From Candidatus Velamenicoccus archaeovorus (GTDB lineage Bacteria > Omnitrophota > Gorgyraeia > Velamenicoccales > Velamenicoccaceae), in NCBI RefSeq assembly GCF_004102945.1, contig NZ_CP019384.1, positions 900,001 to 932,000 on the forward strand: a DNA stretch of 32,000 bases, written 5' to 3'. Shown piece by piece: positions 2,141 through 27,059 of the stretch. Every line of letters begins with the position of its first letter. The first letter of the stretch is position 1. The position numbers and the translations under genes are program-made. Below the pieces are notes generated by a model, which saw only the letters and a program-made list of their open reading frames with translations, had not been told where the DNA came from and searched no databases.

Positions 2141-2623
2141 TCAGCGCAGGCAATAAGGAGGCTGGCGGTCCAGCCACCTGCGGATTTCACGCAGACAGAT
2201 ATTGCCTTCGGGAAAAGTTCCGGCCAGTTCTTTGTGCCTGAAAAGGATGTCGTGCGCCAGCTTCTGTTTTTTTTCGTCTTGGTGAAAGAGGCTGAAGGCC
2301 AGGTCCATCCAGAGGTCGATGTTCTTAGGGTTTTTTTGGATCGCCCTGAGAAAAAGTTTTTCGGCCTGCCCGTATTGTTCGCCGAGGTAGGCGATATAAC
2401 CGGCCAAGACGAGGGTAAATTCCGAGTCGTCGCATGCCAGCCAGTGCTTCGCTTTTTTCGAGAGGAGCCCCAGGAGGCGCGGATGGTCGAAGACCTTTTC
2501 GGCCAGCGCATCCAGCATATAGTTGCCTCTTGTCATGCCGCTGTCGGCCGTGTTCGTCTGGTATCCGGGGCTGACGCGCGCCGTCCTCAAGAAATCTTGT
2601 TTTATCCTGGCGAGTGTCTTCAT
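2141..2623 (-). CDS. Small TPR-repeat protein
   Basis: LAGYIAYLGEQYGQAEKLFLRAIQKNPKNIDLWMDLAFSLF fits the TPR consensus. ATG 2623 forms an ATGA overlap with the stop of the upstream gene. The ORF-track start at 2698 would overlap that gene by 79 nt. Confidence 0.45.
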   Translation of the reverse strand: MKTLARIKQDFLRTARVSPGYQTNTADSGMTRGNYMLDALAEKVFDHPRLLGLLSKKAKHWLACDDSEFTLVLAGYIAYLGEQYGQAEKLFLRAIQKNPKNIDLWMDLAFSLFHQDEKKQKLAHDILFRHKELAGTFPEGNICLREIRRWLDRQPPYCLR

Positions 2624-3642
2624 GGGGACGTTTTGGGTTTTATGGCCGCCTGTGCCACAGAGGCGCAGTAGCGGCAGCTCACACATCGTTGATTGCAATG
2701 CGTGGTGTGTTCGATAAAGTCTTTGGGAAAGGCCTTGTTATCGCAGATGAAAGGCAAGGGGCCCTTGTTGGACGGCGCCAGCGTGAAGAGGTCGCCCTTG
2801 AAAGACCGGGCAAGATACGCGGAGATCTTTGTTTTGAGGAGGCGGCTGTCGTCTTTGCGGTAGGCGATCTTGATGCCGTCCGCCCAGCCGTTTTCCTCGA
2901 AAAAGGCAAGGTCTTCCGGCCTCAGGTATGGCCGCCTGATCTCATCGGCCGGCTCCTGCGTTGCGAATTGGCATCCGTCTTTGAGCATGAAGCCGACGTA
3001 ACATCCCGCCCCTTCCTGCAGCATCGTCCTGGCCGCCTCCATGAGGACGGGCCATTCAGCATGCCTGCCGCCGTAGAAACAGTGAAGATAGCAACCGTGA
3101 TTCGCCAAAAGTTTAATGGTGACGGCAGGCAGATGTTTGCGGCCGGCGCGGATGGCATCCAGGGCGCGTGCGTCACGGTTGCAGGAGACATCCAGTGTGA
3201 ATTCCGTCATTCCCATCTTGACCGCCTCTTTGATTTTATGTTCACTGTCGATGTTCATGTAAACCGAACTCTGGAGGGCGATCTTCGGAAACATCTTGCG
3301 CAAGAACGGGACGATGCACGGATCGGCCAGGGTGATCGACGTGATCCCTCCGGAGTCTTCGAGGGCCTTGACGTAGCGGCCGATGCGTTTGAGGTCGTCA
3401 AAGAAATTGATCCGTTTGTTGAGGAGGAGGTTCCTTTTGATCTTGTGACGGTGGCAGAGGGCGATCAGTTGCCGGATCTCGCCGCTGGAGGCTTTGCGGG
3501 TGTTGAGGTATTGGTTGGAATGGTCGTCTCCCTCGGGTCCGGCAAAATAGATTTCGTAGATCCCCCCTGTCGCGATCGCCCATTTCATGAGCGCCAGGTC
3601 GTTGTTGTAAGGGATGGACAGTTTCAGCTTGGGGTTTTTCAT
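2620..3642 (-). CDS. U32-family (PrtC/UbiU/UbiV-like) TIM-barrel protein with C-terminal CX3CX2CX2C motif
   Basis: MKNPKLKLSIPYNNDLALMKW...IYEIYFAG, ITLADPCIVPF and KLLANHGCYLHCFYGGRH match the strand/helix pattern I associate with peptidase U32 proteins. The C-terminus HCNQRCVSCRYC is Cys-rich. It is a paralogue of 10779-11819. There is an ATGA overlap with the upstream gene. Confidence 0.55.
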   Translation of the reverse strand: MKNPKLKLSIPYNNDLALMKWAIATGGIYEIYFAGPEGDDHSNQYLNTRKASSGEIRQLIALCHRHKIKRNLLLNKRINFFDDLKRIGRYVKALEDSGGITSITLADPCIVPFLRKMFPKIALQSSVYMNIDSEHKIKEAVKMGMTEFTLDVSCNRDARALDAIRAGRKHLPAVTIKLLANHGCYLHCFYGGRHAEWPVLMEAARTMLQEGAGCYVGFMLKDGCQFATQEPADEIRRPYLRPEDLAFFEENGWADGIKIAYRKDDSRLLKTKISAYLARSFKGDLFTLAPSNKGPLPFICDNKAFPKDFIEHTTHCNQRCVSCRYCASVAQAAIKPKTSP

Positions 3643-5747
3643 CGGTCTTGTGTTTTCTTCGGATCATTTCCGATCGGTTTGAATTCCTCGAACCCGTGGT
3701 GCTGCGCATATGTCCGGTAGACGCCTTCGCATCTTTGGTGGTAAGCACAGCGTTGGCAGCGCGGGCCTTTGGTTTTGTCTTTCAGGCGTTCATGTGTCGG
3801 GCTGATCCTGAAGTCATGGCCTTTCTCGGCCGGATGCAGGCAGAGTTGTCTGTGTCCAGACAGGCGCGGGCCTTCCAGCAGGTTGTTGCGCCACGGCCGT
3901 GGCACATGACAATAAGGAAAGCCTTCGAGCACGACTTCCAGATTTTTTTCTTTTCGCGCCCATTGCAGCGCCCTCTTTAGATATGGCGAGACTTGCGTGT
4001 ATGTCGGCACGACCTTGTCGAAGTAGGTCCTGGCAAAGCCGTGGGGGGTCAGAAAGACGAACCAGATGCCTTTGACCCCCAGGCGCTTGAGGAATTTTGC
4101 CGTCTCTTGCAGGTGGCGGTAATTGGCCCTTGTGATCATGATCTTGACGTAAAGGCCGCGAGAGACGGCAAGCGCGTTGCGGATGCCGGCGACGGTTTCC
4201 CAGAAGCTGCCCGGGACATTCGTGGTGACATCGTGCGCCTTGGCTTTGTAATCCTGCAGATGAGTATAGATCACGGGGTGATAAGCGGCAAGCCGCTTGA
4301 CAAATTCTTTTTTAGCCATGAGGCGTCCGTTGGTCTGTATTTGGATCTTGTAGCCCAGCCGGAAGGCGGATTCCATAAGGGAAAAGAAGTCCTCCCTGGC
4401 CGTCGGTTCTCCTCCTGAAAGGACCAGTTGGTCGTAACTGCGGCGATAGGCGGCCAGCGCCTTTGTGAGGATCCCCAGGGATGTGAAGGTCCCGGGTTTG
4501 TTGTCGCCCGTGACACAGAAAATACAACGGTTATTGCAGCGGTAGCCGACCCTGAAGAACAGGGTCCGGGGTTCTTTGTCTAGAATATGGCGATAGATGG
4601 CTTCTACATCCGCGGCGTAAGAATGGATATCCTGGACATGGGCGTGAAAAGGAGGCTTTAAGCGCGCGCGGCCCCTCCGGATCTTCCCGATGATGCGGTT
4701 GAGTTGTGCCAAAGAACTATAGACGAAGGCGTTTCTGCCGGGGATGGTTTTTTCAAGGAGGCTCGGCTGCCTGGGAATAATGACGGGTATCTTTTGGTAG
4801 AGCGATTCCAAAAGCGACATGGGCCCTGTTTCGTCCCAAACCGACGGCACCAGGAGGTAGTCTATTTTTGAATAAAACTTTTCGGGGAGCTCGGCATAAG
4901 GAATATTCTCGATGATTTCGATGTCCGGCCGATTCCCGATATTCTCCAGCTGCCGCAGGTTTTTTTGTGGTGCGCCTTTTGTCCAGAGGCCGAGAAGCAT
5001 GCGGATACCGCCGTTTCGTTTTATCAAATATTCGATCGTGTCCGACCCTTTGAGGGGCGTCCATATCCCCAAAAAGCCGAAGACAGGCTCTTTGTCTTGG
5101 CGTCTTGCGCGCGGCCGCCGCCGCATGTGTACGCCATAAGGCAAGCAAACGATCTTGTCCGGGTCGGCGACGAGTGGGGCCAGTATTTCTTTTTGTGTTT
5201 GCGATGGGCATATGATCGCATCGCACATGTCTATGATTTGGCGGATGTGGCCGCGCCGCGCGGCGTTAAACTCGGAAAGGGGCATATGATTGTATGCCGC
5301 CAATCTTTGTGCATCAGGACATGAACAGGCCTCCGGGTTTGTCTTGCGGCATATCTTGCGGCCGTCATGGAACCTGCCGCCGGCGCAAAACAAAGAGTGG
5401 TCGTGGAGGGTCACGACGATGCGTGCGCCCAGGCTGGCCGCTGTAGTCAAGATGGGCCGCAATTTCGTTCCTGAAAAAAGATGAACATGGACGATGTCGG
5501 GCGGATCCGCCTTCAAGGCGTTGTCCAGGGCCAGGCGCAGGCGTTCGTCGTAGACGATATTGTTGTCCGGCGAACATCGGATATGGATATGCCTCAGGTC
5601 TGTGCGTGAATGCAGAGTCGTTTGGCCGTCGGAATCCACAGAGGTTTCCAGGGAGATATAGGTGATTTGGTGTCTGATTTTCTGGCGGCGGACGAGTTCC
5701 CAGAAACACGGGTGGTAGAGGCTTGAACTGATATGGGCGATGTGCAT
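3639..5747 (-). CDS. Fusion protein: N-terminal GT4-type glycosyltransferase and C-terminal radical SAM domain
   Basis: Residues 1-390 are GT-B/GT4-like, with an E-x7-E motif (WDETGPMSLLES). Residues about 395-702 are rSAM: FFRVGYRCNNRCIFC (CX3CX2C), LSGGEPT and IQTNG. The C-terminus carries FPYC...CQRCAYHQRCEG. The single 702-codon ORF has no internal stop. Confidence 0.8.
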   Translation of the reverse strand: MHIAHISSSLYHPCFWELVRRQKIRHQITYISLETSVDSDGQTTLHSRTDLRHIHIRCSPDNNIVYDERLRLALDNALKADPPDIVHVHLFSGTKLRPILTTAASLGARIVVTLHDHSLFCAGGRFHDGRKICRKTNPEACSCPDAQRLAAYNHMPLSEFNAARRGHIRQIIDMCDAIICPSQTQKEILAPLVADPDKIVCLPYGVHMRRRPRARRQDKEPVFGFLGIWTPLKGSDTIEYLIKRNGGIRMLLGLWTKGAPQKNLRQLENIGNRPDIEIIENIPYAELPEKFYSKIDYLLVPSVWDETGPMSLLESLYQKIPVIIPRQPSLLEKTIPGRNAFVYSSLAQLNRIIGKIRRGRARLKPPFHAHVQDIHSYAADVEAIYRHILDKEPRTLFFRVGYRCNNRCIFCVTGDNKPGTFTSLGILTKALAAYRRSYDQLVLSGGEPTAREDFFSLMESAFRLGYKIQIQTNGRLMAKKEFVKRLAAYHPVIYTHLQDYKAKAHDVTTNVPGSFWETVAGIRNALAVSRGLYVKIMITRANYRHLQETAKFLKRLGVKGIWFVFLTPHGFARTYFDKVVPTYTQVSPYLKRALQWARKEKNLEVVLEGFPYCHVPRPWRNNLLEGPRLSGHRQLCLHPAEKGHDFRISPTHERLKDKTKGPRCQRCAYHQRCEGVYRTYAQHHGFEEFKPIGNDPKKTQDR

Positions 5748-5749
5748 GG

Positions 5750-6721
5750 CTATTGGAATGTGACCAGGAACGGATGCTCCGGCGCGAAAACGTTGAGCGG
5801 GACCGAAATGTTTTTCAGGATTTTCCCCCGGCGCAGGAGCGTCAGCTGCCTGCCGTGGAGTTTGAGGGCGTCGGCCCGCTCCAAGTCCCGGCCGTATTCA
5901 TTGCGCGTCGCGTCATGAGAGACGAACGCCGCATGTTTATAAGACACGATATTGTCCTTCATGGCGGCCCCGGCGAGTGCGTAGAATTTCCGTTCATAGA
6001 ACACCAAAAACGTCTGTTTGAGGTAGGCGTCCATCTTGCGGACATATTCCGGCTCTTTTTTGAAAATTTCACGCCGCAGCCTTCCTGCCAGCTTGATGGT
6101 TGCCGGGCAATCGTAGCGGCATGGCATGTGATAGATGTAGGAAAAGATCGTGTCTTTGAGCAAAGGGTTGCAGAGAAAAGACGGCCGGGTCCTGGTGTGG
6201 CGCCAGGCTTCATAAAGATGGCTGTAACGGATCCAGTCGTTGTATTGCCTGAAAAATCTGATGCAACAATCGGGATATCCCAGGACGTAGCCGTATTTGA
6301 GATGGTCGGCGCGCGGGGCGAAGATGACGCGGTTGTTGATGATGACGGGATACCACATGGCCCGTTTCAGCGTCTTTTTGTCTTTTGCCAGAAAGACGTG
6401 GACCTCTTCGTCCGTATCTGTCTCCAGCGGCAGGCCGTAGGCCGATGTCGTCGTGAGCCGGTCTTTGCCGATCACGGAATCCGGGACGTCATTCTTGTGC
6501 ACATTGCGGAAGATGACGCTCTCCCGGACATGGATACCGTATCGGCGGCAGGCCTTTTTGAATGCCTCGATCCTGTTTTTTCTAATCCAGTCATCCAGGA
6601 GGGGTTTGAAGCCCAGGATCAAGGACATGTAAAGGCCTAACTGGAGGCCGTTGCCCTTGATCTCCATGAGGTCGGCGCAGAAAGATCTCGGCTTGTATTG
6701 TTCCAGAAGGGGATTATTCAT
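5750..6721 (-). CDS. Hypothetical protein with paired Cys motifs (GYPDCC ... HMPCRYDCP)
   Basis: A 323-codon ORF whose stop lies 2 nt before the next gene's ATG. The conserved-looking motifs are LGYPDCCIRFF and YHMPCRYDCPATI. I cannot place the family. Confidence 0.6.
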   Translation of the reverse strand: MNNPLLEQYKPRSFCADLMEIKGNGLQLGLYMSLILGFKPLLDDWIRKNRIEAFKKACRRYGIHVRESVIFRNVHKNDVPDSVIGKDRLTTTSAYGLPLETDTDEEVHVFLAKDKKTLKRAMWYPVIINNRVIFAPRADHLKYGYVLGYPDCCIRFFRQYNDWIRYSHLYEAWRHTRTRPSFLCNPLLKDTIFSYIYHMPCRYDCPATIKLAGRLRREIFKKEPEYVRKMDAYLKQTFLVFYERKFYALAGAAMKDNIVSYKHAAFVSHDATRNEYGRDLERADALKLHGRQLTLLRRGKILKNISVPLNVFAPEHPFLVTFQ

Positions 6722-6828
6722 GATAAGGTCTCTTCTATCTTATGGGAACGACGTCTCTTTTTCAAGCGCCGGCGCGTTTTTCGCCGCTTTCCATCTGTTT
6801 ATCGCATTCAAGCCGTCAGGATGATATA

Positions 6829-7572
6829 ATGATGCCTATGTCCAAGATCGATGCAGATCTTTATAGGGCCCGCTTGACGGGAATTTTTCGCAAGATCGCG
6901 GCGGACGCGCAGAGGCGCACGGCTTCGGGCGCCCGGCTTTGCGTCCTGGCGACAGGCGGGCTGGATTCATCTCTTTTGGCCAGCCTGTTGAAGCCTTTGC
7001 GTCCTCATCTCTATTTCGCTCTTGTTCGTGATAAGAGTCTCCGTTCTTACAATACGTGGTCTGTGCGCCGGTGCCGCGCGCTGGCCCGCCGTCTGGGCCT
7101 GCAGTTTTCCGCCATTACGGTCACGAAGCGCGATTACGCAAAGGCCTACGTTTCCCTCCGGCCGACACTTCCCTTTGTTGCTCGTGAGAGGGATATCGCG
7201 GCCGTGGCTGTCTTTTTCCGCCTGATCGCGCAGCGCCAGAAGCATCCCTGCCTTTTATTGAGCGGGATGGGCGTGAACGAACTCTGCAGCCTGTCCGCCA
7301 GGCGCGCGCGCGCCTATTATCGTAAGAAGGGCTTGGCCGAAATCAGGACTCATCAAAAACTTGCGCGGGCCTGCGGTTCGTCTTTCTGGGCCCCCTGGCT
7401 TTCGCATGGTTCGGTCCGTTTTTTCACGTTCCTCCCGGCCGGGCTAAAAACGGACAAGGCGTTTTTTAAAAAAGTCATTGCCGACGCATCTCTTTTGCCG
7501 CCGGATTTTATTCGCCAATCCTCCCGTCATTCGTCTGTCCCTTCTTCGTTTCTGAAGGGTCTTGACGGTTGA
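6829..7572 (+). CDS. Asparagine-synthetase-like PP-loop adenylating enzyme (no glutaminase domain)
   Basis: LCVLATGGLDSSLLASLL matches the SGGxDSS PP-loop. LLLSGMGVNELCS resembles the AsnB xLSGEGADElf motif. AGGA lies 7 nt upstream of ATG 6829; an alternative in-frame ATG is at 6742. The protein is only about 247 aa, so it has no Ntn glutaminase domain. Confidence 0.6.
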   Translation: MMPMSKIDADLYRARLTGIFRKIAADAQRRTASGARLCVLATGGLDSSLLASLLKPLRPHLYFALVRDKSLRSYNTWSVRRCRALARRLGLQFSAITVTKRDYAKAYVSLRPTLPFVARERDIAAVAVFFRLIAQRQKHPCLLLSGMGVNELCSLSARRARAYYRKKGLAEIRTHQKLARACGSSFWAPWLSHGSVRFFTFLPAGLKTDKAFFKKVIADASLLPPDFIRQSSRHSSVPSSFLKGLDG

Positions 7573-8542
7573 CCCTCGTCATAAAATCAAAAAGCTCTTC
7601 AAAAGTCTTCCAGTCGATGCCGGTCTTGCCGGTCAGGTCGTTGACGATCTTGAAGCTCGAGACGATATAGTCTCTGTAGGTCTGTTTTTTCTCTTTCCGG
7701 CCGAAGCGTTGGTAGAGTTGCTTCAGCATTGCCAGGGTTTTCGTATTGAGACGCGGCTGCGGCGAGAACTGGATGAGCGAAAATTCCTGTTTGAGTTTTT
7801 CCGGAAGACATAGGAATGCATCTCCCGGCAAGAGATATCCGTGCGGATGCAGGCTGAGGTCCCAGGCGCCTTGCGGAGAGAAACGCCTGGCATCGCCGGC
7901 ATAGATTTTGGCATGGTATTTTTTTGCGATCCAGGCATAATCCTGTTTGAATGTTCGGCGTCCGGCCTGGTCCCAGGCAGCAAAAGCCGCTGGAGTCACG
8001 TCGATCTTGCCGAACGGCAGTTGAGCCAGAAAGAGAAAATTATGGCGGAACCGCGGCATTTCTTGCGGATGGACCGTCATGTTGCAGTTGACCGCCAGGC
8101 CCGCCAGCCGGCACAGCAGGAGCATCTCGACCAGATGGGCGAAGGACGCGTTTGTGGTACCCCTTCTCCATGCCGACGTGGTTGCCGGAAGGCCGTCGAG
8201 TCCGATCTCCAGATTGACCTTATTTGTCTTGAGAAAGGCGATCTTGGGCGCGTCCAATAGCAGGCCGTTTGTCTGGAGGCCGATCTCGGCTTTGGGCACA
8301 GCCGTTTTCAGGAAGGAAATGACCTTTTTCGTTAACGGCCACACCAGGAGAGGTTCGCCTCCACTTAAGATGAAGCGCCGGGGTTTCATCCCTTCTTTTT
8401 CAAGGAAAAAGATAAACCCCCTGATCGTTTCCAGTGACAAAGACCTGTTTCTCTTGTCCCGGAAATAGCAATACCTGCATGCGAGATTGCACTTTTCAGT
8501 GACGTAGAGAAAGATATGGGAGGATTCAATGGCGGGTGGCAT
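7508..8542 (-). CDS. Radical SAM protein (paralogue of 20657-21676)
   Basis: FLYVTEKCNLACRYCYF (CX3CX2C), ILSGGEPLL and GLQTNG. It shares MTVHPQE...IDV.PA with the 20657 protein. There is no SPASM-type Cys pattern. The start was chosen at Met19 (MPPAIE) by analogy with the paralogue; an alternative ATG is at 8596. Confidence 0.8.
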   Translation of the reverse strand: MPPAIESSHIFLYVTEKCNLACRYCYFRDKRNRSLSLETIRGFIFFLEKEGMKPRRFILSGGEPLLVWPLTKKVISFLKTAVPKAEIGLQTNGLLLDAPKIAFLKTNKVNLEIGLDGLPATTSAWRRGTTNASFAHLVEMLLLCRLAGLAVNCNMTVHPQEMPRFRHNFLFLAQLPFGKIDVTPAAFAAWDQAGRRTFKQDYAWIAKKYHAKIYAGDARRFSPQGAWDLSLHPHGYLLPGDAFLCLPEKLKQEFSLIQFSPQPRLNTKTLAMLKQLYQRFGRKEKKQTYRDYIVSSFKIVNDLTGKTGIDWKTFEELFDFMTRVNRQDPSETKKGQTNDGRIGE

Positions 8543-11819: not shown

Positions 11820-11828
11820 GAAGACCTC

Positions 11829-15996: not shown

Positions 15997-16222
15997 GACT
16001 ATCTTGATTTGGATTGCTTTGCCATTGTTCTGTGTCTGTCGTGGCTTGGTCGAGTTCGCGGCGCCGGCCGCGCGTACAACCATGATGAGACGGGGTTGCG
16101 GCAACTGCCTGTTCCGCAAGAGATCGTGCGAGCGATGCGGTGGCCTGCGCCGGTCGAAGGCCGAGGGGGACTCCAGTCATTATATGCAAACTTCAGGCGG
16201 CGGGCAACTGGTATTTGGTGTT

Positions 16223-16249
16223 TTGCACGCCTCCCGAAAATGATATAAT
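16223..16249 (+). promoter_or_regulatory. Putative promoter for the kinase gene
   Basis: TTGCAC (16223-16228), a 15-nt spacer, then TGaTATAAT (extended -10, TATAAT at 16244-16249). It lies about 30 nt upstream of the AGAGGG SD and ATG 16278. The spacer is shorter than optimal. Confidence 0.4.
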
Positions 16250-16277
16250 ACACGACAAAAGAAAGAGGGTATGGTAT

Positions 16278-18407: not shown

Positions 18408-18451
18408 AGGTATTGACGGAAGACAAAGACGATGCTTAAATAAAGTTTCTC

Positions 18452-19447: not shown

Positions 19448-20667
19448 AGGATTTTGAGAACGGTTTTGACGGTGGCGGCCGCCCCTTCGAAAAAGGCCGG
19501 GGGCAGCGGTTTTGGCGCCGGCGCCTGCAAGACATCTTTGATGGCCCCGGCAAGGGTTTCCGAACGCAATCCGTCATAGTCGAAGAGGCGCGCGTTGAGA
19601 TGTTTTTCAAGGAGGCGCGCGCGCGGCGTCTGGTCATTGATCCACCCGGACTTAGCGAGGACGGTATAGGGGGCGATGATGCATTTCTTGCCAAGGTGCA
19701 GCAGCTGGACGGATGTGTTGTAGCCGGCCAGGCTGACGGAGACATCGCAGGCGCCAAGACAGTCGGCGAAATGAGGCACGTACGGCACGACAGACGTGTG
19801 TTTGATGCCGTGTTTGCGGACGAGGGCTTCGAAAAATTCCATTTCTTTTCTACCCGACGCAGGACCCGCGGACAGCAGCATGGCGGCATCGTTTCCCAGA
19901 TATCGTTTGGCGAGGATTGCGCTCGCGATGATCTTGGGGCAGGTCGTCCCCCCTCCCCTGCTCACAAGGATTTTTTTGCGTTTGGATTTTTTCCATCGTT
20001 TCATCAGCCGTTCTGCCGCCGGATGGCCGGCGCCTTCGGTGCAGCGCGGCAGGATATAGCCCGTGTGGATGATTTTTTCCTTCAGCGATGCGAAGATCGA
20101 GGCATACAAGTCCCTGCGTTCTTTGTCCGGGACGAGCTCGAGGAAATACGGGTATTCGAAATTCTCCGGCGTATGGATGAAGATCTTGTCGTAGAAACGC
20201 ACTTCTTTGAAAAAACGCTGGACATTTTTGATGACATCGAGAGTGATGTAGGGATAGCCGATGGTTGCCAGGATCTTTTTGCGTTGTTTCTTCAAAAAAA
20301 GGAACGCCTCGGAAAGCTCCAGGAAGCATTCGCTCCTGCCGAAAGGAAAGTATTCCGTCATGAAGACGTCCGGCATGATGTCTTTGGTTTTATCGAGGAT
20401 GAAATCGGCGCGCAGGCCGATGTTCCGGATGTCTGCCGGAAGATTTTTGAACTGCGCTTTGCTGTAAAAAGGATAGGGAACGTCGATCTTTGTGACGCCG
20501 GGTTTCGGCCTGAATGTGTGCTGAGGGACGCCTGCCTGGAGGAGATAAACCTCGAACAGGCCCCGGCCGAAGGACGCGAAAGCATCCGCCAGGGTCGTGA
20601 TCCTCGATGTGTGGCCGAGGCTCTCCTTGTGGGTGTAATATAATAGAATTTTGATTTTATTTCGCAT
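19444..20667 (-). CDS. GT-B glycosyltransferase (MurG/GT28 C-terminal-like)
   Basis: The N-terminus KILLYYTHKESLGHTSR and the C-terminal half ILVSRGGGT...VSLAGYNTSVQLLHLGKKCIIAP follow the MurG-like nucleotide-sugar binding pattern. It is a paralogue of 21857-22945. Confidence 0.7.
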   Translation of the reverse strand: MRNKIKILLYYTHKESLGHTSRITTLADAFASFGRGLFEVYLLQAGVPQHTFRPKPGVTKIDVPYPFYSKAQFKNLPADIRNIGLRADFILDKTKDIMPDVFMTEYFPFGRSECFLELSEAFLFLKKQRKKILATIGYPYITLDVIKNVQRFFKEVRFYDKIFIHTPENFEYPYFLELVPDKERRDLYASIFASLKEKIIHTGYILPRCTEGAGHPAAERLMKRWKKSKRKKILVSRGGGTTCPKIIASAILAKRYLGNDAAMLLSAGPASGRKEMEFFEALVRKHGIKHTSVVPYVPHFADCLGACDVSVSLAGYNTSVQLLHLGKKCIIAPYTVLAKSGWINDQTPRARLLEKHLNARLFDYDGLRSETLAGAIKDVLQAPAPKPLPPAFFEGAAATVKTVLKIL

Positions 20668-21676
20668 GGCGCGGTGTCATGAGGAACGTCTGGTCTATAT
20701 TTTTAACGGCCCTGCAGATGTCCCGGTAGCGACGCAAGCCGGCCTTTGGCCGCGTCCTTTTCCAGAGGCGCATGGCCAGCGCAGCGCTGTAGTTGCTGAA
20801 TTCACGGTACGAGACCGTCCTGTTCTTGAAAAGCGCCCGGTAATGGGCCAGGAGCCCTTGATAGACGGCTTCGTTGTATGCGGTGCCGTCCGTTCCAAGC
20901 TTCAGGATAAAAAACCGGTCCCGGATCGCTTTGGGGAACGCCATGAAGGTCCAATTTGCAAGAACGTCTCCGTGGGGAAGAACGACGAGGTCGTGGCCGT
21001 AACTCATGGGGCGGCTGTAGCAGGGACAAAGGACGCGCTTGCGCGCGCATGACAATGCCGCCAGATGTCTGTAATTGTCGATGAAATCCTTTGCCGAGGC
21101 CGCGTCCCACGGGGCCAGGAATGCAGGATGGACATCGATGCGCGAGACCCCCAGAGACGACAAGAACCCAAAATTCTTCGCCATATAACGGGTTTCTTGC
21201 GGATGGACGGTCATGGTCGGGAATACCTCGATTCCCAGGCGCAGGGCCTTTTTTATGTTCGTGCATATGAGGCGGTAGTTTTGGGCGGAAGTCCCTTTCC
21301 TGTGGCGGGCGGTGCTTTCGGGATTCCCGTCAATGCCAGGCTCCAGGGATATGTTATGGCACCTGAGAAATCGCATCTTTTCTTCCGTCAAAAGAAGCAT
21401 ATTGCTTTGAAGCAAGATAGAGCTTTTCGGCCTAATTTTTTTGATGTCCCGGACAAGCGTTTTTACGAAATCCCATCGCAGGAGAGGTTCTCCTCCGGAG
21501 ATTACGAATTCAGTCTTTGGGTCCTTCGGCAGGATGTTTAACAGTTGTCTGGCCTGTGCCAGGGAAAGGTCCTGACGTCGTGTTTTCGAAGAGAAAAAGC
21601 AGTAGTCGCAGTCCAGCTGGCATCGGTCTGTAATGAATATCCAGCAGTATTTTATGGAAGGCATTGTGCGTCTCAT
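20657..21676 (-). CDS. Radical SAM protein (paralogue of 7508-8542)
   Basis: WIFITDRCQLDCDYCFF, ISGGEPLL and MTVHPQETRYM...IDVHPAF. The start is uncertain: in-frame ATGs lie at 21664, 21676, 21703 and 21787, and the ORF-track start at 21820 is a TTG. Confidence 0.75.
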   Translation of the reverse strand: MRRTMPSIKYCWIFITDRCQLDCDYCFFSSKTRRQDLSLAQARQLLNILPKDPKTEFVISGGEPLLRWDFVKTLVRDIKKIRPKSSILLQSNMLLLTEEKMRFLRCHNISLEPGIDGNPESTARHRKGTSAQNYRLICTNIKKALRLGIEVFPTMTVHPQETRYMAKNFGFLSSLGVSRIDVHPAFLAPWDAASAKDFIDNYRHLAALSCARKRVLCPCYSRPMSYGHDLVVLPHGDVLANWTFMAFPKAIRDRFFILKLGTDGTAYNEAVYQGLLAHYRALFKNRTVSYREFSNYSAALAMRLWKRTRPKAGLRRYRDICRAVKNIDQTFLMTPRHAK

Positions 21677-21856: not shown

Positions 21857-22945
21857 TCAAAGGTGTTCCAGGATCAGTTCTGCCGAACGGGCCGCTCCCC
21901 GGAACCAGTTTTCAGGAACGGTCCTCGTTTTTGGGTGTCCGCGTCTGTCCGCGAGCCCTGCGATGGAGCGTTCCAGTTTTTCCGGCGAGATATCTTTTGC
22001 GGACAAGATTCTTGCCGTGGCGTATTGTGCCAGGAACCGGGCGTTCCAGCGTTGCTCGGCCGTTGCGGCGGGCAGGATAAGCGACGGTATGCGGTAGCGC
22101 AGGAGCCGGACCATGGTGTTATAACCGGCGAGGTTGACACTTACATCGGCACCCTTGAGGCATTGTTCGAATTCGGGATATTTCCAGGAAAAATATTCCA
22201 AGGCGGTCTGCCGGTCTCCTTTCCTTTTCAGGGCTTGCGGCGCCGCCGTCCCCGCCGATATCGCGAAATGCCAGTCGGGCCGTTTCAACGCCACGCGCAG
22301 ACAACTGCGGATGAGGCCCGGATGGTCCTGCAGTCCTCCCCGGCTCACGACAACACGTAGGCCCGGACCGGCGCCTTGGCGGCATTCCTTAAAGTCCGTA
22401 TCGTCATGCACGAAGCCCGTTGCGGCAAGCTTGTGCCGGCATTGCCGCAGGACGGCCTTCAGGAGTTTTCTTTCGTCAGCGGGCAGGTAAGATTCATACG
22501 AATTCATCTGCGCTTGCGGCCAGTGATAAAGAACAAGGTCGTAGTGATGAGGCAAAAACAGGTTCAGGGAGTTTGTCCAATCGAGATGGACGGTGCTGGA
22601 GATGATCGTTGTTTTTGAGGAACGCAGTTGTTTGAGGATGGGCAGGAGAACCTGGTGTTCCGGGTGGCGGAAAAAAGGATAATGTTCCGTCAAGAAGACA
22701 TCGGGGCGGATATGTTTGAGCGCCCTGAACAGGGCGCGGCTCCAATGGATGCCGCTTTTTTGTTGCGGCAGGAAAAGGTGGTCGGCGAAGCGCCTGATGG
22801 GAAAAAGATGCGTTTTTTTTGTTCCCGTCTCGATGGCGATGATATCGGTTTTCTTCAGGGATGCCACCGCTTTGGTCAGCGTGTAAACGATATGCGCATG
22901 TCCCAGAGAGTCCGTGTTATGGAAGAAGACGCAGAGCTTTTTCAT
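21857..22945 (-). CDS. GT-B glycosyltransferase (MurG/GT28 C-terminal-like), paralogue of 19444-20667
   Basis: KLCVFFHNTDSLGHAHI, VVVSRGG and VNLAGYNTMVRLLRYRIPSLILP. There is an ATGA overlap with the upstream aminotransferase gene. Confidence 0.7.
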   Translation of the reverse strand: MKKLCVFFHNTDSLGHAHIVYTLTKAVASLKKTDIIAIETGTKKTHLFPIRRFADHLFLPQQKSGIHWSRALFRALKHIRPDVFLTEHYPFFRHPEHQVLLPILKQLRSSKTTIISSTVHLDWTNSLNLFLPHHYDLVLYHWPQAQMNSYESYLPADERKLLKAVLRQCRHKLAATGFVHDDTDFKECRQGAGPGLRVVVSRGGLQDHPGLIRSCLRVALKRPDWHFAISAGTAAPQALKRKGDRQTALEYFSWKYPEFEQCLKGADVSVNLAGYNTMVRLLRYRIPSLILPAATAEQRWNARFLAQYATARILSAKDISPEKLERSIAGLADRRGHPKTRTVPENWFRGAARSAELILEHL

Positions 22946-24060
22946 GAAGGCCTGGTCTTTTGGACGTGGAAAAATTCACGGATGGCCTCGACGACGAACG
23001 CAGCCTCCTTTTCCTTCATGAAAGAGAATAGGGGCAGATGAAGCGCCTCCCCGCTGTAGGCATCGCTGTTCGGCATCTGCGTTCGGCAGAAGGACGAGAA
23101 TGTTTTCATGCGGTGCAGCGGCGTGTAGGGGTTTTGCCAGTCGATGCCTCGTTTTTTGAGATGTTGGCCGAGGGCATCGCGTTCGCGCGCGGCCATGACG
23201 AAAACCTGGGGGATGGTCAGGGTGCGCGCGTCGTCGCGCGGGAAAGAGATGTTTTTCATGCCGCCCAGCTCTTTTTCGTAAAATGCCTTGATCTTGAGCC
23301 GCGATTTGATGATTTCCTTGAGAAAGCGGAATTTTGTCCTGACGGCCATCAGGTCCCAGAGGTACATGCGGGAGTATCTCTGGCCGGCCTTCAGAAGCGA
23401 GGCGTCGTCTTTCCATATTTTTGTCATTTCTACGATTTTTTCGCAGGCCGGGTCGTTAAAACACAGCATGCCTCCTCCGCCTCCGCATGAGGACAGGGGT
23501 TTGTAGTACGAGAAAGAGAAGCATGAGATGTCGCCGAAAGAACCTAATTTTTTGTGTTTGTATTCGGAGCTTTCCGCCTGGCAGACGTCTTCGACGACAA
23601 ACAGCTTATGTTTTTTTGCGATGGCAAGGATGCTGTCTATGGGGGCGGGGCGGCCGAACATGTGCACGGCAATGATGCCTTTGGTGCGCTTGGTCACCAA
23701 GCCGCGGACCGCGTCCGCATCCATCTGGTAGTCTGCCGTGCGGCAATCCGCCGGGACGGGCAAGCCCCCTGCATAGATGACGGCCAGGGGAACGGCAGGA
23801 TACGTCACGTTCGGGACGATGACCTCGTCGCCTGTCTTGAGGCCATAGTGTTGGAGAGCCAGCTGGAGGGCGTCGGTTCCCGAATTCAGGGCGAGGGCAC
23901 GGCGTGTGCCGATATAGCGCGCAAATTCCTTTTCCCACTCTCCGAGGAGGCCTTCGATGTCGTTGAGGCCGTTGATCCTCTTGAGATCGGCCTCGATCCT
24001 CTCTTGATAAGATTTGATCAGCAGCCTGTCGATGCGCATGCTGTCATACCGGATGGGCAT
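22942..24060 (-). CDS. PLP-dependent sugar aminotransferase, DegT/DnrJ/EryC1/StrS family
   Basis: LNSGTDALQLAL, GDEVIVPNVTYPA, IIAVHMFGRP, VVEDVCQA and FSFSYYKPLSS (candidate PLP lysine) follow the DegT family pattern. Confidence 0.85.
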   Translation of the reverse strand: MPIRYDSMRIDRLLIKSYQERIEADLKRINGLNDIEGLLGEWEKEFARYIGTRRALALNSGTDALQLALQHYGLKTGDEVIVPNVTYPAVPLAVIYAGGLPVPADCRTADYQMDADAVRGLVTKRTKGIIAVHMFGRPAPIDSILAIAKKHKLFVVEDVCQAESSEYKHKKLGSFGDISCFSFSYYKPLSSCGGGGGMLCFNDPACEKIVEMTKIWKDDASLLKAGQRYSRMYLWDLMAVRTKFRFLKEIIKSRLKIKAFYEKELGGMKNISFPRDDARTLTIPQVFVMAARERDALGQHLKKRGIDWQNPYTPLHRMKTFSSFCRTQMPNSDAYSGEALHLPLFSFMKEKEAAFVVEAIREFFHVQKTRPS

Positions 24061-24158
24061 GGGAAAACGATAGACGTTGAGGTTCGATTCTTATAAAATA
24101 ATATGCGTTGGAGATTTGATTTCCTGGCACGCTTGTCTATCATATATAACAGAATTGA

Positions 24159-25058
24159 ATGGATATTGCAACCGTAACGCTTTCCTTTGTCCCGCTGCTT
24201 GTGATCCTGGGGGTCCGGACGAGTTATTCGGACCTCAGGAAAGGGATCGTCAAGAACTGGGATCTTGTTTTTACCTTGTTTGCCGCAACGGCCCTTTATG
24301 GGTATCTTATTGTATACCATGGGGTTCAGATAGATCCCGTTCTCTTTATCGGAAACTTCTGCATTGCGGCAAGCTTCGGGCTGATCCTCTATTTTACCGA
24401 TTGCTGGGGGGCCGGTGACGCAAAACTCTTCATTGTCTATTCATTGATGGTCCCCTTTCCCGCCGACAGGGCTGTCCTGCCGTTTTCTGCTTTTGTCATC
24501 TTTGCCAATACGATCATGATCGCCTGCGGTGCCGTTATCCTTTTGTCGCTGAAGGACGTGATCCGTTCTTTTCCCCAATGCCTCCAGCGGTTGTTTTCCC
24601 TGAAGACATTGAAGCGGCTGATGATTTCATTTTCGCTCCTTTTGAGCATCAGCTGGGTCGTCCCCTATCTCTTGGGTTTTTTTGGCGCCCATGCCTCGCC
24701 TCTCATTTTTATCCTGTTGACCTATCTGCTTTATTCCGGATTGCATTCCATTTTGCGTTTTTTCAAGTCTTACGCGTTATTTTCTGTGGTTGTATTATGC
24801 GGTATCGGGATCCGCTTTTGGCTGTTTCCTCATCCGCTGGAGGTCCTCTCGTCCCTTTTGCTCAGCTTCAGAAAGATCATCCTGGTGACTTTCTTTTTTG
24901 GCCTTCTGGACATTTTTTTCCAGGCAGATGAAGTTGAGAAGAAAAAGACGAATGATGATTCGATCATCCTGGCCCCCCACATGTTCCTCGGTGTCATGCT
25001 GACCCAGACACATTTCTTAAAGGGAGTCATGAAACTCATGAACTATATCTGGAGATGA
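24159..25058 (+). CDS. Polytopic membrane protein, prepilin peptidase (A24 aspartic protease)-like
   Basis: The two family signatures are present: SYSDLRKGIVKNW (first Asp) and CWGAGDAKLFIVYSL (GxGD-type second Asp). There are multiple hydrophobic segments. Its stop overlaps the next ATG (ATGA). Confidence 0.65.
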   Translation: MDIATVTLSFVPLLVILGVRTSYSDLRKGIVKNWDLVFTLFAATALYGYLIVYHGVQIDPVLFIGNFCIAASFGLILYFTDCWGAGDAKLFIVYSLMVPFPADRAVLPFSAFVIFANTIMIACGAVILLSLKDVIRSFPQCLQRLFSLKTLKRLMISFSLLLSISWVVPYLLGFFGAHASPLIFILLTYLLYSGLHSILRFFKSYALFSVVVLCGIGIRFWLFPHPLEVLSSLLLSFRKIILVTFFFGLLDIFFQADEVEKKKTNDDSIILAPHMFLGVMLTQTHFLKGVMKLMNYIWR

Positions 25059-26335
25059 CCATGCCGGTCCTGGCGGTTTTGCTGAAAAAAATGACGTTGA
25101 CCGGTGCACGGGTCCGCAAGGAGGGGCGCCTCATAGAGGTTTGCGTCGGTCGAGCCGATCCTTTCAGGGTGCGTTCCCTGGCTTATCTGCTGCTTAACGG
25201 CTTTGAGCGCAGGTATTTTATCGTGGTGCGGGAAATGCCCTATTGCCTGATGCCGGATGCCTGGGATCATATTCCGTCGTCTGCGGGCGATGCAGTCCGC
25301 GATCGCCGTTGCCGGAGCTGCCGTTTCCACCTGTCTTGCCTCGGACCTAAGCGCCGTGTCGTTCCTGCCGCACAAAAGGATGCGCCGCGGGAGGTGGCTT
25401 TTGAACTCACGGATCGTTGTAATCTGCGTTGCCGGACGTGTTTCCATGCTACGGGTTCAAGACGGCTTGCGCTTGAGCGGGTCATCGCCGTTATGAAGGC
25501 GATGAAGCGGGCAGGGGTCCCGCAGGTCCGCTTCACGGGCGGAGAACCGTTGTTGTATCCCGGCCTCCGGCCGGCTGTGCTGACGGCGAAAAAGATGGGA
25601 CTAGAGGTGCTTTTGAATACCAATGCAACATTGATCAACCAAGAGGATGCGGAGTTCCTGGCATGCCATCTCGACGATATCCTGGTGTCGTGTCAGGGGT
25701 GCGATGGGGCTACTGAGGAATATTTGACAGGCGGCGGAAGATTTTTTGCGGATAAATTGCGTCATATTCGCATGTTGACGCGCCGCAACCTTCCTCTGCG
25801 CGCAGGAACGATCGTGACGCAGACATTAATTGAACGTCTGCCGGATTACCTCAGTCTTTTGCAATCCTTGGGGGTCGGCCGGTGGGAGCTCTACAGGCCT
25901 CTGCCCACCTCCTTTTCTCAAAAGAGGGGCATGGTTTCGAGAGATGATTTCAGGAGGCTGCTGGCGCGTTTAAGTGTTTATAGGGGGGATATGTCGATCA
26001 AGTTCGCAAACCCCGTCCCCTTTTGCATGGCGGATGACCTTGCGGCGAGTTGTCACTTATTGACCGGAGGATTTTGGGACGACGGCCACAGCCGTCTTGT
26101 TATGGATGCCGGAGGGCATTTCAAGCCAAGTTATGCCCTCGATACGGATCTTGGCACCGATATGTTGAAAGCCTGGCGTCATTCCGCATTAACGCCCCTC
26201 CGCTCTCTTTCTTATCTGTCTCCGAGGTGCCGGGAATGCGCCTATGTTTATTGGTGCAGGGGCGGCAGCCGATTGTGGGCCCGGCACGGCAGAGGCAGTA
26301 TCTGGTCCGAAGATCCGTGGATGTCTCATGAATAA
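25055..26335 (+). CDS. Radical SAM enzyme with an N-terminal Cys-rich extension and a C-terminal SPASM-like CX2CX5C
   Basis: FELTDRCNLRCRTC is the rSAM box at residues 122-129, followed by FTGGEPLL. The N-terminal 110 aa contain MPYC...CRSCRFHLSC. The C-terminus carries CRECAYVYWCRGG. Confidence 0.85.
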   Translation: MTMPVLAVLLKKMTLTGARVRKEGRLIEVCVGRADPFRVRSLAYLLLNGFERRYFIVVREMPYCLMPDAWDHIPSSAGDAVRDRRCRSCRFHLSCLGPKRRVVPAAQKDAPREVAFELTDRCNLRCRTCFHATGSRRLALERVIAVMKAMKRAGVPQVRFTGGEPLLYPGLRPAVLTAKKMGLEVLLNTNATLINQEDAEFLACHLDDILVSCQGCDGATEEYLTGGGRFFADKLRHIRMLTRRNLPLRAGTIVTQTLIERLPDYLSLLQSLGVGRWELYRPLPTSFSQKRGMVSRDDFRRLLARLSVYRGDMSIKFANPVPFCMADDLAASCHLLTGGFWDDGHSRLVMDAGGHFKPSYALDTDLGTDMLKAWRHSALTPLRSLSYLSPRCRECAYVYWCRGGSRLWARHGRGSIWSEDPWMSHE

Positions 26336-27059
26336 ATTCATTTTTGTCCGCGATGACGATGTCTGGCGTCTCTCCCGCTCTTTCCGCGCTTTTTTTGATT
26401 ATTGCTTTGACCATGATATCCCGGTCGTGTATGCCGTCATCCCGGCAAAGATGCAGCCGGGCCTTGTGCGTTTTTTGAGGAAGAGGAAGAAAGAAAAACC
26501 GAAGATGCTCGATATCGTCCAGCATGGATGGCGTCATGCAGACCATCGCTTGAAAAATGAGACGGTCCTGGGGAGGGGGAAATATGAATTCGGCCCTTCC
26601 CGTTCTTATCTTGTTCAGAGACGCGATATTCTTGAGGGGCGGTCGAAAATGATAGAAGCTTTTAGGGACGACTTTGTGGACGCCTTCGTCCCTCCTTTTC
26701 ACGGATACGACAAGGCGACATTGCGGATAGTGGAAGAGTGCGACTTTGGGATGTTTTCCGCCCGCAAAAAAGAGATTTTTCCTCAAGGGCGCGTCCTGTC
26801 CCTTCCCGTAGATATTTCTATCCCCGCAGGGGATCAGGCATTTGACTTGCGCGGGTTCATGAATATCCTTTGGAAGCGCATGAAAGGCCCTGGTCGGGTG
26901 GTGGGCGTGTTGAGTCATCACGAAAAGCTGGGGAACGTACGCTTGCGCCAAGACACCTTCACTTTCTTGTCGGCGCTCAAGAAGCTCCAGAATGAAGGGG
27001 TTTGCCGCTTGACGACCTTTTCAAGGATGCGGCGGCAGGGCGACGCGAGGGGTTATTGA
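26328..27059 (+). CDS. NodB/CE4-like polysaccharide deacetylase-family protein
   Basis: FVRDDDV (metal-binding DD motif), QHGWRHADH (HxxxH-like) and FVPPFHGYD fit the order of the CE4 motifs. ATG 26328 overlaps the upstream stop by 8 nt. The ORF-track start at 26244 is unsupported. Confidence 0.5.
   Translation: MNKFIFVRDDDVWRLSRSFRAFFDYCFDHDIPVVYAVIPAKMQPGLVRFLRKRKKEKPKMLDIVQHGWRHADHRLKNETVLGRGKYEFGPSRSYLVQRRDILEGRSKMIEAFRDDFVDAFVPPFHGYDKATLRIVEECDFGMFSARKKEIFPQGRVLSLPVDISIPAGDQAFDLRGFMNILWKRMKGPGRVVGVLSHHEKLGNVRLRQDTFTFLSALKKLQNEGVCRLTTFSRMRRQGDARGY

Follow-up and report, generated by a model that had tools for sequence, protein, structure and literature searches.

A radical SAM-dense locus with a predicted variant His-Xaa-Ser system in Candidatus Velamenicoccus archaeovorus

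We analyzed a 32,000-nucleotide stretch (the window) of the closed genome of Candidatus Velamenicoccus archaeovorus LiM (Omnitrophota, taxid 1930593; contig NZ_CP019384.1, positions 900,001 to 932,000), which runs from about BU251_04070 to BU251_04215 and encodes twelve radical S-adenosylmethionine (rSAM) enzymes. Judged from its sequence, the window ends on the right in a variant His-Xaa-Ser (HXS) system, and the whole locus is best filed as a greatly expanded, new variant of the HXS rSAM maturation systems. Whether these genes form one super-cluster, built around the variant HXS system and hyper-modifying an exported HxsA-type peptide, is a proposition to which we give about even odds. The host is an anaerobic ultramicrobacterium that preys on archaea and bacteria in a methanogenic enrichment (PMC12583861).

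Open reading frames (ORFs) of the window were listed, and a non-overlapping gene set was translated and then scanned against Pfam and NCBIfam (Table 1). The right end is assigned to a variant HXS system because it combines an HxsB equivalog score, an HxsA-like ORF, HxsC4 and HxsC best matches, and a relative of HxsD. The HxsB match is full length (residues 22 to 477 on positions 1 to 466 of a 466-position model). The HxsA-like ORF starts 155 nt past the HxsB stop, outside the interval 2141-27059, and harbors a conserved Lys-rich leader, one hydrophobic segment, an AxA/H junction, four tandem HxS repeats (HVSHYSHSSHGS) plus HSS, and the C terminus HVSHYSHSSHGSY; its His/Ser-rich core of ~37 residues, ending in Tyr, reads HTNHSSHANNLGITPYSTRCVKIDHVSHYSHSSHGSY. 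The ORF aligns over its full length with NCBIfam HxsA3 (E = 4.7e-10, 39.1 bits) without reaching the cut-off of 65. The rSAM enzyme encoded at 30609-31550 finds its best NCBIfam match in HxsC4 (151.7 bits, cut-off 500), with HxsC at 92.9 bits (cut-off 267.9), and its homologues, 44 to 49% identical, lie beside HxsB in many loci. The HxsD copy as truncated by the window end has no NCBIfam HxsD match; its relative in locus L001 (comparison loci carry L numbers; coordinates 65-484) harbors Pfam HxsD PF27806 and scores 28 bits with TIGR03976, under the cut-off of 50. A first-pass annotation of this DNA had reported no unambiguous precursor peptide, no scaffold, and no fit to a known class of cluster, statements that are superseded by the HxS-repeat ORF directly downstream of HxsB, by the HxsB score above the equivalog cut-off, and by the HxsA3/4-like character of the peptide.

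A metagenome scan with an HxsB alignment retrieved 80 loci, 59 of them with enough downstream sequence; of the 59, 25 contain the start of an ORF with three or more HxS motifs no farther than 500 nt downstream of HxsB. Across an alignment of 11 HxsA members, the leader residues F16, E20, and G22 are invariant (in the context ...FLxSEEGKI.K...) and are followed by a hydrophobic segment, an A-x-A/H junction at the invariant His54, a variable number of HxS repeats, and Tyr or Trp as the last residue, a family pattern that reads as a leader/export segment joined to a core predicted to be modified. Long HxS arrays, with up to 52 repeats (255 aa), are found in L112 (7907-8683), L119 (2737-3513), and L120 (1613-2221), compared with four to six in Velamenicoccus, and several of these long-array precursors end in Cys-containing tails, not Tyr or Trp. 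A PADLOC 2023 run, with a model set that does not include HXS, gave generic viperin-type rSAM matches only.

The definition of HxsA to HxsD is bioinformatic and goes back to Haft and Basu (as cited in PMC9062424). The E. coli HXS system is an antiphage defence whose exported effector, a protein with HxS repeats, undergoes maturation and processing by HxsB, HxsC, and HxsD (PMC13128918). The Velamenicoccus locus resembles these systems in its HxsB at equivalog score, in an HxsC-like rSAM enzyme with an adjacent HxsD-like protein, and in a substrate with tandem HxS repeats and an N-terminal export/processing segment, for which maturation by at least two rSAM enzymes is expected. It differs in that HxsA is 90 aa long, of the HxsA3/A4 type and devoid of a peptidoglycan-binding domain, in a gene order of D, C-like, two unrelated genes, B, A instead of the canonical D-B-C-A, in an Omnitrophota host where 99.7% of described HXS systems belong to Pseudomonadota, and in ~23 extra co-located genes, including 10 more rSAM, U32-like, ABBA, glycosyltransferase (GT), DegT, APH, and A24-like genes. 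We thus file the locus as an expanded HXS variant on the strength of HxsB and the HxS repeats, with a departure from both the canonical gene order and the canonical HxsA architecture.

All twelve rSAM ORFs contain the CX3CX2C motif and exceed the PF04055 gathering cut-off (49.8-71.7 bits against 29.5), in agreement with the first-pass annotation. That annotation had counted the twelve among about 34 genes; the window does hold twelve, 10 of which lie within 2141-27059, in a set of 23 genes (the island genes below), and we count ~31 genes from 2141 to the window end, a model consistent with the GenBank locus-tag spacing from BU251_04075 to BU251_04190. Since rSAM enzymes usually make up a few percent of the gene content of an anaerobe, 12 in ~31 genes is far above chance. 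Five of the enzymes pass the SPASM threshold (PF13186, cut-off 21.5 bits: 9677-10798, 12680-13777, 13790-14908, 14905-15996, and 17280-18407), and SPASM is subthreshold in 18452-19447 and in HxsB. The paralogue sets suggested earlier are real by pairwise identity, with 23-43% among the four members A1 to A4 and 32% between rSAM 7508 and rSAM 20657 (enzymes are named by their first coordinate where necessary). For A3, the ORF reaches 16119, and the ATG at 15996 agrees with the paralogues.

The closest characterized relatives of several of these enzymes are peptide maturases, namely PapB, CteB, ChlB, PqqE, HxsB, and HxsC. The best NCBIfam match of rSAM 7508 is PapB (94.5 bits against a cut-off of 340), and its nearest solved structures, at low similarity, are CteB (5wgg, E = 6.9e-9) and ChlB; rSAM 20657 matches PapB (72.4 bits) and HxsB (65.5 bits), both under cut-off; and the solved structure nearest to A2, again at low similarity, is PqqE (6c8v, E = 4.9e-7). 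The rSAM domain of the GT4 fusion protein best matches HxsC4 (132.9 bits) and HxsC (111.2 bits), under both cut-offs, and the fusion is 30% identical to rSAM 30609. Over all window ORFs, PqqE scores do not exceed 71.7 bits (equivalog level, 381) and MftC scores do not exceed 56.5 bits (265), and membership of a PQQ- or mycofactocin-type system was rejected on these values. When set against the known rSAM/SPASM systems for ribosomally synthesized and post-translationally modified peptides (RiPPs), i.e., PapB ranthipeptides, CteB/SCIFF, PqqE, and MftC, the locus is alike in that these are the nearest relatives of rSAM 7508, rSAM 20657, and the A family, in the leader-plus-core logic of its precursor, and in a C-terminal aromatic residue that recalls MftA and PqqA; it is unlike them in NCBIfam scores far under the cut-offs, in that no RRE/PqqD domain was found, and in a core that is rich in His and Ser and not in Cys. 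Mycofactocin is glycosylated after its peptide-derived assembly.

Table 1. Predicted features of the window, with strand and supporting matches (GA, gathering cut-off; aa, amino acids; PLP, pyridoxal phosphate; AF2, AlphaFold2).
Feature	Coordinates	Strand	Support
Small TPR protein	2141..2623	-	Weak TPR Pfam matches; start overlaps U32a stop (ATGA)
U32-like Fe-S TIM-barrel protein, copy a (BU251_04075)	2620..3642	-	PF01136 19.6 bits
GT4/GT1 glycosyltransferase fused to HxsC-like rSAM domain (BU251_04080)	3639..5747	-	Pfam Glyco_transf_4, Glycos_transf_1, Radical_SAM
DUF483-like protein, invariant GYPxCC...YHMPC...C	5750..6721	-	PF04467 21 bits, GA 25
AsnB-type PP-loop ATP-pyrophosphatase domain, no glutaminase domain, antisense	6742..7572	+	PF00733 25.3 bits, GA 21
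rSAM, PapB/CteB-like, paralogue of 20657-21676	7508..8542	-	PF04055 64 bits
PaaK-like adenylate-forming ligase	8526..9725	-	PDB 2y4o E 1.4e-17; NCBIfam DVU_1553/PaaK under cut-off
rSAM/SPASM paralogue A1	9677..10798	-	PF04055 and PF13186 above GA; A2 43% identical
U32-like Fe-S TIM-barrel protein, copy b	10779..11819	-	PF01136 21.2 bits
ABBA (PT-barrel) prenyltransferase-fold protein, 284 aa (BU251_04115)	11829..12683	-	AF2 and Foldseek
rSAM/SPASM	12680..13777	-	PF04055 49.8 bits, SPASM 22.5 bits
rSAM/SPASM paralogue A2	13790..14908	-	Pfam
rSAM/SPASM paralogue A3	14905..15996	-	Pfam
APH-family phosphotransferase (kinase), antisense; true start probably internal	16140..17273	+	PF01636 46.8 bits, GA 23.2
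rSAM/SPASM paralogue A4	17280..18407	-	Pfam, paralogue identity
rSAM, ScmF/NirJ-like, antisense to main operon	18452..19447	+	PF04055 61.9 bits; NCBIfam all under cut-off
GT-B glycosyltransferase (Glyco_tran_28_C), copy a (GT28a)	19444..20667	-	PF04101 33.9 bits, GA 22
rSAM, PapB/HxsB-like	20657..21676	-	PF04055 69.5 bits
GT-B glycosyltransferase (Glyco_tran_28_C), copy b (GT28b)	21857..22945	-	PF04101 29.8 bits
DegT/DnrJ/EryC1 PLP aminotransferase, first gene of long minus-strand operon (BU251_04165)	22942..24060	-	PF01041 243.6 bits
A24-like polytopic membrane protein (prepilin-peptidase-type, GxGD)	24159..25058	+	PF01478 25.5 bits, GA 26.5
rSAM (NirJ-like core) with Cys-rich N-terminal extension	25055..26335	+	PF04055 57.9 bits
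DUF2334 (polysaccharide-deacetylase-like)	26328..27059	+	PF10096 38.4 bits, GA 26
Secreted Cys-rich protein, last gene of HxsB-HxsA operon	27053..27826	-	N-terminal signal-like segment, ~12 Cys
HxsA-type precursor, 90 aa (BU251_04190, annotated hypothetical)	27831..28103	-	HxS repeats HVSHYSHSSHGS, leader, hydrophobic segment, C-terminal Tyr
HxsB, His-Xaa-Ser rSAM/SPASM maturase	28258..29694	-	NCBIfam TIGR03978 386.2 bits, cut-off 370
Two small genes (110 aa; DUF5674), 4-nt overlap, between HxsC-like rSAM and HxsB	29927..30672	-	PF18924 120.5 bits
HxsC4-like rSAM	30609..31550	-	PF04055 71.7 bits
HxsD-like protein, cut by window end	31704..32000	-	66% identity over 79 aa (E 1e-35) to L001 65-484

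The island genes recur next to HxsB and HxsA in other loci, which were drawn from a U32-anchored sample of genome contigs and an HxsB-anchored sample of metagenomes. In the U32-anchored sample, an rSAM-core HMM detected rSAM genes in 17 of the 23 loci whose U32-like gene is 30% identical or more (1 to 10 genes where present, mostly 3-10), compared with only four of 56 loci for distant U32 relatives; by motif count, up to 13 rSAM-type ORFs occur in L015 and L017, and U32-like genes lie within rSAM arrays in three phyla. HxsB and HxsA share strand and cluster with a U32-like gene in L018, L019, L001, and L130; in L001, HxsB and a peptide gene with the conserved leader and a disrupted C terminus cluster with the U32-like gene, and L130 groups HxsB, HxsA, rSAM enzymes, U32, and an rSAM 25055-like gene. 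Among the closest HxsB loci, L084 (55% identity) brings together HxsB, HxsA, rSAM 25055, A24, the Cys-rich protein, and DegT, and L085, L087, L091, and L093 add GT28, APH, DUF2334, and rSAM 12680 near HxsB-HxsA. Homologues of the Cys-rich protein either follow HxsA or lie inside the island (L001, L084, L085, L080, and L004). Over the 769 kb of the HxsB-anchored sample, matches were found to A24 in eight loci, rSAM 25055 in nine (of 80 loci), DUF483 in five, DegT and GT28 in three each, and the Cys-rich protein, DUF2334, and U32 in two each, compared with zero for these families except rSAM 25055 (two) in a control of equal size that was not taxon-matched, which weakens the comparison. The A24-like gene and rSAM 25055 form a pair in L001, L008, L084, L087, and L091. 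As a separate matter, HxsB and the GT28-like and PaaK-like genes of L001 are each split into two frames (503-1892, 3116-4259, and 20106-20952), and these splits, together with an HxsA-like ORF that has no HxS tail, reflect assembly frameshifts or pseudogenization.

An alternative explanation, possible if rather doubtful in our estimate, is that two separate systems lie side by side, a compact HXS peptide system (27.0-32.0 kb) and an O2-independent pathway to a cell-envelope glycoconjugate, an aminoglycoside-like compound, or a prenylated small molecule (2.1-27.0 kb), in which the rSAM enzymes would act on sugars or lipids, e.g., by dehydrogenation before DegT transamination as in BtrN/BtrS, and their repeated proximity in Omnitrophota would be inherited synteny. 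The DegT, DUF2334, APH, and PaaK/AsnB-type enzymes and the three GT units are typical of sugar or small-molecule tailoring; the HXS block and the island occupy separate transcription units; most HxsB loci have no genes for these enzymes; and the position beside pgk-tpiA is kept in relatives despite changing island content. On the other hand, the peptide maturases noted above are closest to the island's own rSAM enzymes, the Cys-rich gene that follows HxsA here lies inside the island in L080 and L004, and island genes are interleaved with HxsB-HxsA in varying orders (L084, L085, L087, L091, L093, L001, and L019), an interchange that makes frozen synteny alone hard to uphold. Furthermore, Pfam and NCBIfam reveal no genes in the window for nucleotide-sugar synthesis, a 2-deoxy-scyllo-inosose or inositol-phosphate synthase, a flippase/polymerase (Wzx/Wzy-type), or an initiating transferase, which bears out absences recorded before, including that of a squalene-hopene cyclase. 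An aminoglycoside/aminocyclitol cluster was rejected since no window ORF encodes a cyclitol-forming enzyme in either database, and a hopanoid (hpn) cluster was rejected for want of the cyclase, with HpnH scores of 31-39 bits against a cut-off of 225. Were the two-system explanation true, the island would remain notable as an O2-independent glycoconjugate pathway of an unusual kind.

We consider a ribosomal peptide the better-supported scaffold relative to an aminocyclitol, a free glycoconjugate, or an aromatic small molecule, in view of the HXS module, the island genes beside HxsB-HxsA, the peptide-maturase relatives, and the ABBA fold described below. The aminocyclitol, glycoconjugate, and aromatic glycoside options put forward in the first-pass annotation are less supported as accounts of the product, and each may hold for part of the island. 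We infer a model in which all modules act on HxsA. The ribosomal 90-aa precursor would provide the scaffold, with a Lys-rich leader (invariant F..E.G), a hydrophobic export segment, an AxA/H junction resembling a signal-peptidase site, and the ~37-residue core. Radical modifications of this core would be made in the cytoplasm by HxsB, by the HxsC4-like rSAM enzyme with HxsD, and by the HxsC-like rSAM domain of the GT4 fusion. Further decoration would come from the other rSAM/SPASM paralogues, the U32-like pair, the ABBA prenyltransferase, GT4, both GT28-type transferases, and the adenylating enzymes, with an amino sugar tailored by DegT and DUF2334 and a possible contribution from the APH kinase. 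The product would then be exported, and the leader would be removed by the A24-like GxGD membrane protease or by signal peptidase. Cleavage of HxsA by A24 at K-x-G before the hydrophobic segment was considered as well; given the invariant AxA/H junction, signal-peptidase-type cleavage is at least as likely as A24 cleavage. By analogy with characterized enzymes, plausible chemistry includes O-glycosylation or phosphorylation of Ser, prenylation of His or Tyr, O2-independent hydroxylation, and radical cross-links or methylations, and the mature peptide could, like its E. coli HXS counterpart, serve as an envelope-located barrier or effector.

Several observations weigh against a single pathway of this kind. 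HxsA, HxsC, and HxsD all fall under their NCBIfam cut-offs, and an RRE/PqqD-type domain was not detected. Convergent with the A24 operon and outside it, the HxsB-HxsA operon lies ~4 kb from the start of the DegT operon. Most HxsB-HxsA loci have no U32, GT, DegT, or ABBA gene within 10 kb (U32-like genes occur in two of 80), and DUF483-TPR pairs (L082, L165, and L166) and some U32-like genes (L007 and L010) occur with no rSAM gene nearby, from which it follows that the modules are separable. DegT, GT-B, DUF2334, and APH are classic sugar/aminoglycoside enzymes with obvious non-peptide roles, and the supplements of PMC12583861 contain no BU251_040x/041x entries that would provide evidence of expression. 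It is this modularity, i.e., a majority of HxsB loci with none of the island's non-rSAM genes, DUF483-TPR and U32-like genes on their own, and enzymes of the sugar type, that keeps the single-pathway model at even odds.

Its most far-reaching form, which we advance only tentatively, is a hyper-modified ribosomal peptide of a kind not seen before, in which up to twelve rSAM enzymes would cross-link or otherwise alter the exported HxsA core of ~37 residues, rich in His and Ser, and in which this core would also be hydroxylated or processed in another way by U32-like proteins as a new Fe-S enzyme family partnered with rSAM enzymes, prenylated by the ABBA protein, and O-glycosylated with an amino sugar. 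If this were true, the product might be an envelope effector against phages or prey, U32-like and DUF483 proteins would become new RiPP tailoring or partner families, the ABBA clade would be new, and HXS biology would extend far beyond Pseudomonadota. The role of HXS as an antiphage effector system matured by rSAM enzymes, with a +8 Da change whose chemistry is unsolved, was established only in 2026, and HXS was thought almost confined to Pseudomonadota; the locus described here would be a much larger version in Omnitrophota. It offers a closed genome from an enrichment culture with published proteomes, a tiny, tractable precursor, and a defined group of partners conserved together with it (the U32-like Fe-S proteins, the ABBA prenyltransferase, the A24-like protease, and the GTs), and thus concrete candidates for new peptide chemistry in rSAM/RiPP enzymology, a route to the function of an uncharacterized U32-like subfamily, and a testable hypothesis on the envelope biology of Omnitrophota predators. 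A literature search found no paper describing this gene set, as had been anticipated.

The 284-residue ABBA protein is modeled by AF2 with a pLDDT of 82.6 and a pTM of 0.85 as five alpha-alpha-beta-beta repeats, and Foldseek returns 67 PDB matches at E ≤ 1e-3, those listed all being ABBA prenyltransferases (CdpNPT, PagF, CymD, DciF, KgpF, LimF, and PirF, with E values shown of 1.5e-7 to 8.2e-5). A PDB sequence search with this protein gave nothing significant; the "ABBA-like" label given on first inspection is confirmed at the level of the predicted fold. Nine homologues are detectable. Its gene has a GTGA overlap with the upstream rSAM gene, rSAM 12680, which also adjoins the ABBA gene in L002, L004, L005, and L080. 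Shared with the cyanobactin enzymes PagF, KgpF, LimF, and DciF are the predicted PT-barrel fold, a length of ~285-300 aa, and a peptide-maturation context; identity is only 10-14% with TM-scores of 0.5-0.66, and the match to indole prenyltransferases is equally good. The prenylated residue is His for LimF and Tyr for PagF, and both residues are abundant or terminal in HxsA. Prenylation, as suggested by this fold, and glycosylation by the three GT units are plausible pathway steps.

The remaining enzyme families named in the first-pass annotation (GT4, two GT-B, DegT, a deacetylase-type protein here assigned to DUF2334, APH, PaaK-like, and AsnB-like) are all present by Pfam or PDB matches. GT28a and GT28b are 27% identical; PDB sequence searches with GT28a and DUF2334 gave nothing significant; and DegT reaches no NCBIfam equivalog level. 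An SGGxDS-type motif is found in the AsnB-type translation and a GAGD motif in the A24-like translation. The U32, A24, and PaaK assignments are given only as "-like" because their Pfam scores are below the gathering thresholds.

The two U32-like proteins are paralogues with 50% identity, both under the PF01136 gathering score of 22.4, which several relatives pass (23.7-38.6 bits); this confirms the pair noted previously, with the "-like" retained. A family profile matches the U32 structure 5d88 (E = 0.0018), and the family, which is weakly tied to U32 by these comparisons, conserves C181, C185, H191, and a C-terminal CX3CX2CX2C motif. The Peptidase U32 superfamily includes the O2-independent hydroxylases UbiU/UbiV, RlhA, and TrhP. 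Common to the window proteins and this superfamily are a weak but reproducible similarity in the TIM-barrel core, Cys/His residues that would fit Fe-S binding, and an anaerobic host; the window proteins differ in their subthreshold scores, in the Cys pattern CX3C...H plus C-terminal CX3CX2CX2C, and in belonging to a subfamily that lies within rSAM arrays and, in relatives, forms fusions with rSAM or TPR domains, a setting that to our knowledge has not been described for UbiU/V-type enzymes. That an anaerobic host encodes twelve rSAM enzymes together with a pair of Cys-rich U32-like proteins also upholds the earlier view of a multistep tailoring cluster with O2-independent chemistry. Forty-two homologues of U32b were found, most with Omnitrophica/Omnitrophota source names, and a profile search of 1.84 billion representatives gave 491 clusters (50% identity) at E ≤ 1e-30. 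Longer members include fusions to three rSAM domains, to B12-binding and rSAM domains, and, in five cases, to TPR, and the U32-TPR fusions mirror the adjacent U32a-TPR gene pair of the window.

There is a further alternative, which we think unlikely: the region could be a hot spot in which several small rSAM systems, independent of one another, have accumulated (among them peptide maturases, enzymes of the cofactor type, and glycan modifiers), e.g., through shared regulation or Fe-S/SAM supply, and make no single product. A hot spot would fit the plastic content of related loci (B12-rSAMs in L080, GT2 and methyltransferases in L083, and other rSAM types in L001, L009, and L015), the internal duplications, the three antisense insertions, and the rSAM-rich neighborhoods known in groundwater Elusimicrobia (10.1101/765248). 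It is at odds with the tight ATGA coupling through ~20 consecutive genes of different families, with a ~10-gene core that persists at a U32-like protein identity of only 50%, and with domain fusions that join U32, rSAM, and TPR. In Elusimicrobia, up to 13 rSAM genes lie close together in neighborhoods of group VI nitrogenase paralogues (Meheust et al., 10.1101/765248); clustering of many rSAM genes in uncultivated anaerobes is a shared feature, and some of the U32-anchored loci come from such genomes (e.g., GWF2_62_30). A nifH/D/K-like gene turned up neither in the window nor among the scanned unannotated flank ORFs of L017-L020, and a link to the nif-paralogue clusters is unsupported.

Conservation of the island extends through several genomes. 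L002 (95% identity) and L003 (~85%) retain full synteny including pgk, and the cluster architecture is kept at 65-95% identity in L002, L003, and L080. In L080, where the ABBA protein is 65% identical, the order is A24, then divergent DegT, GT28, rSAM, GT28, rSAM, followed by ABBA, rSAMs, U32, and PaaK, then the Cys-rich homologue. L005, with a 50% identical U32-like protein, keeps a core of ~10 island genes, and L009, L008, and L001 keep other subsets. Homologues are thus co-localized elsewhere (L002, L003, L080, L005, L009, and L164), in line with the first-pass reading of the cluster. Near-identical or syntenic copies in metagenome-assembled genomes (L002, L004, L006, L007, and L019; P0145) are labeled Planctomycetia, Planctomycetales, or Margulisiibacteriota, probably through mis-binning or misclassification.

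The left flank of the cluster is tpiA-pgk (Pfam scan; window 52-2019, minus strand; pgk, QAT16962), and the block adjoins pgk/tpiA in relatives as well (L002, at 95% identity, and L164, with a 64% identical DUF483-like protein), abutting pgk-tpiA-secG in L164 (11610-14142). GC content is flat across the window (0.51-0.56), the Pfam scan of the ORFs brought up no mobility gene, and an Rfam scan of the window gave no riboswitch or RNA family. The term "accessory island" in its mobile sense was rejected on the basis of this flat composition, the mobility-gene result, and the conserved position beside pgk-tpiA; the repeated gene order in L080 and the L164 block next to pgk-tpiA-secG argue for an old syntenic block of plastic content. 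Operon-like coupling holds as described, every overlap named being present, with ATGA/GTGA start-stop overlaps at 2620/2623, 3639/3642, 12680/12683, 14905/14908, and 22942/22945 and longer overlaps at 10779-10798 and 20657-20667; hardly any intergenic space separates ~20 consecutive genes. The antisense AsnB-like (6742-7572), APH (16140-17273), and rSAM (18452-19447) genes keep their orientation in L002, L003, and L080. The gap between the long minus-strand operon and pgk is only ~120 nt, and the operon may read through into pgk.

The DUF483-like protein has 92 listed homologues, among which every source name except one (Vulcanimicrobiota) is Omnitrophica/Omnitrophota, and its invariant GYPxCC...YHMPC...C pattern suggests a metal site. 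Its AF2 model (pLDDT 89) has no fold match in the PDB (best E = 0.046), and a PDB sequence search gave nothing significant. The gene adjoins an HxsC-like rSAM gene in L083, L098, L137, and L148, and the DUF483-TPR pair is conserved in relatives. In L082, L165, and L166 (~6900-11450), ORFs of ~304 aa and ~490-505 aa, DUF483, and a partner of 157-167 aa lie beside an esterase gene with no rSAM gene, a conserved context that points to an rSAM-independent role of the DUF483/partner pair; L165 and L166 also carry a 91-aa ORF upstream of this context. Distant U32-like relatives (24-30% identity) are found in Methanocaldococcus (e.g., L025 10001-10897 from Methanocaldococcus sp. 16A), Methanothermococcus, ANME-2/Methanoperedens, Desulfobacterota, and Verrucomicrobiota, with rSAM genes hardly ever nearby (L024-L079), and represent a broader, uncharacterized U32-like family in a different context.

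Finally, the 110-aa/DUF5674 gene pair in the HXS module has no homologues in the 80 HxsB loci and is followed by a GC-rich terminator-like hairpin at 29871-29852; as it is not conserved in other HXS loci, it may be an unrelated insert, possibly toxin-antitoxin-like. A 74-aa ORF (31511-31735, minus strand) was rejected as a second HxsD (no similarity, E = 60); it matches no family and spans the stretch from the HxsD stop to where the HxsC-like rSAM gene starts.

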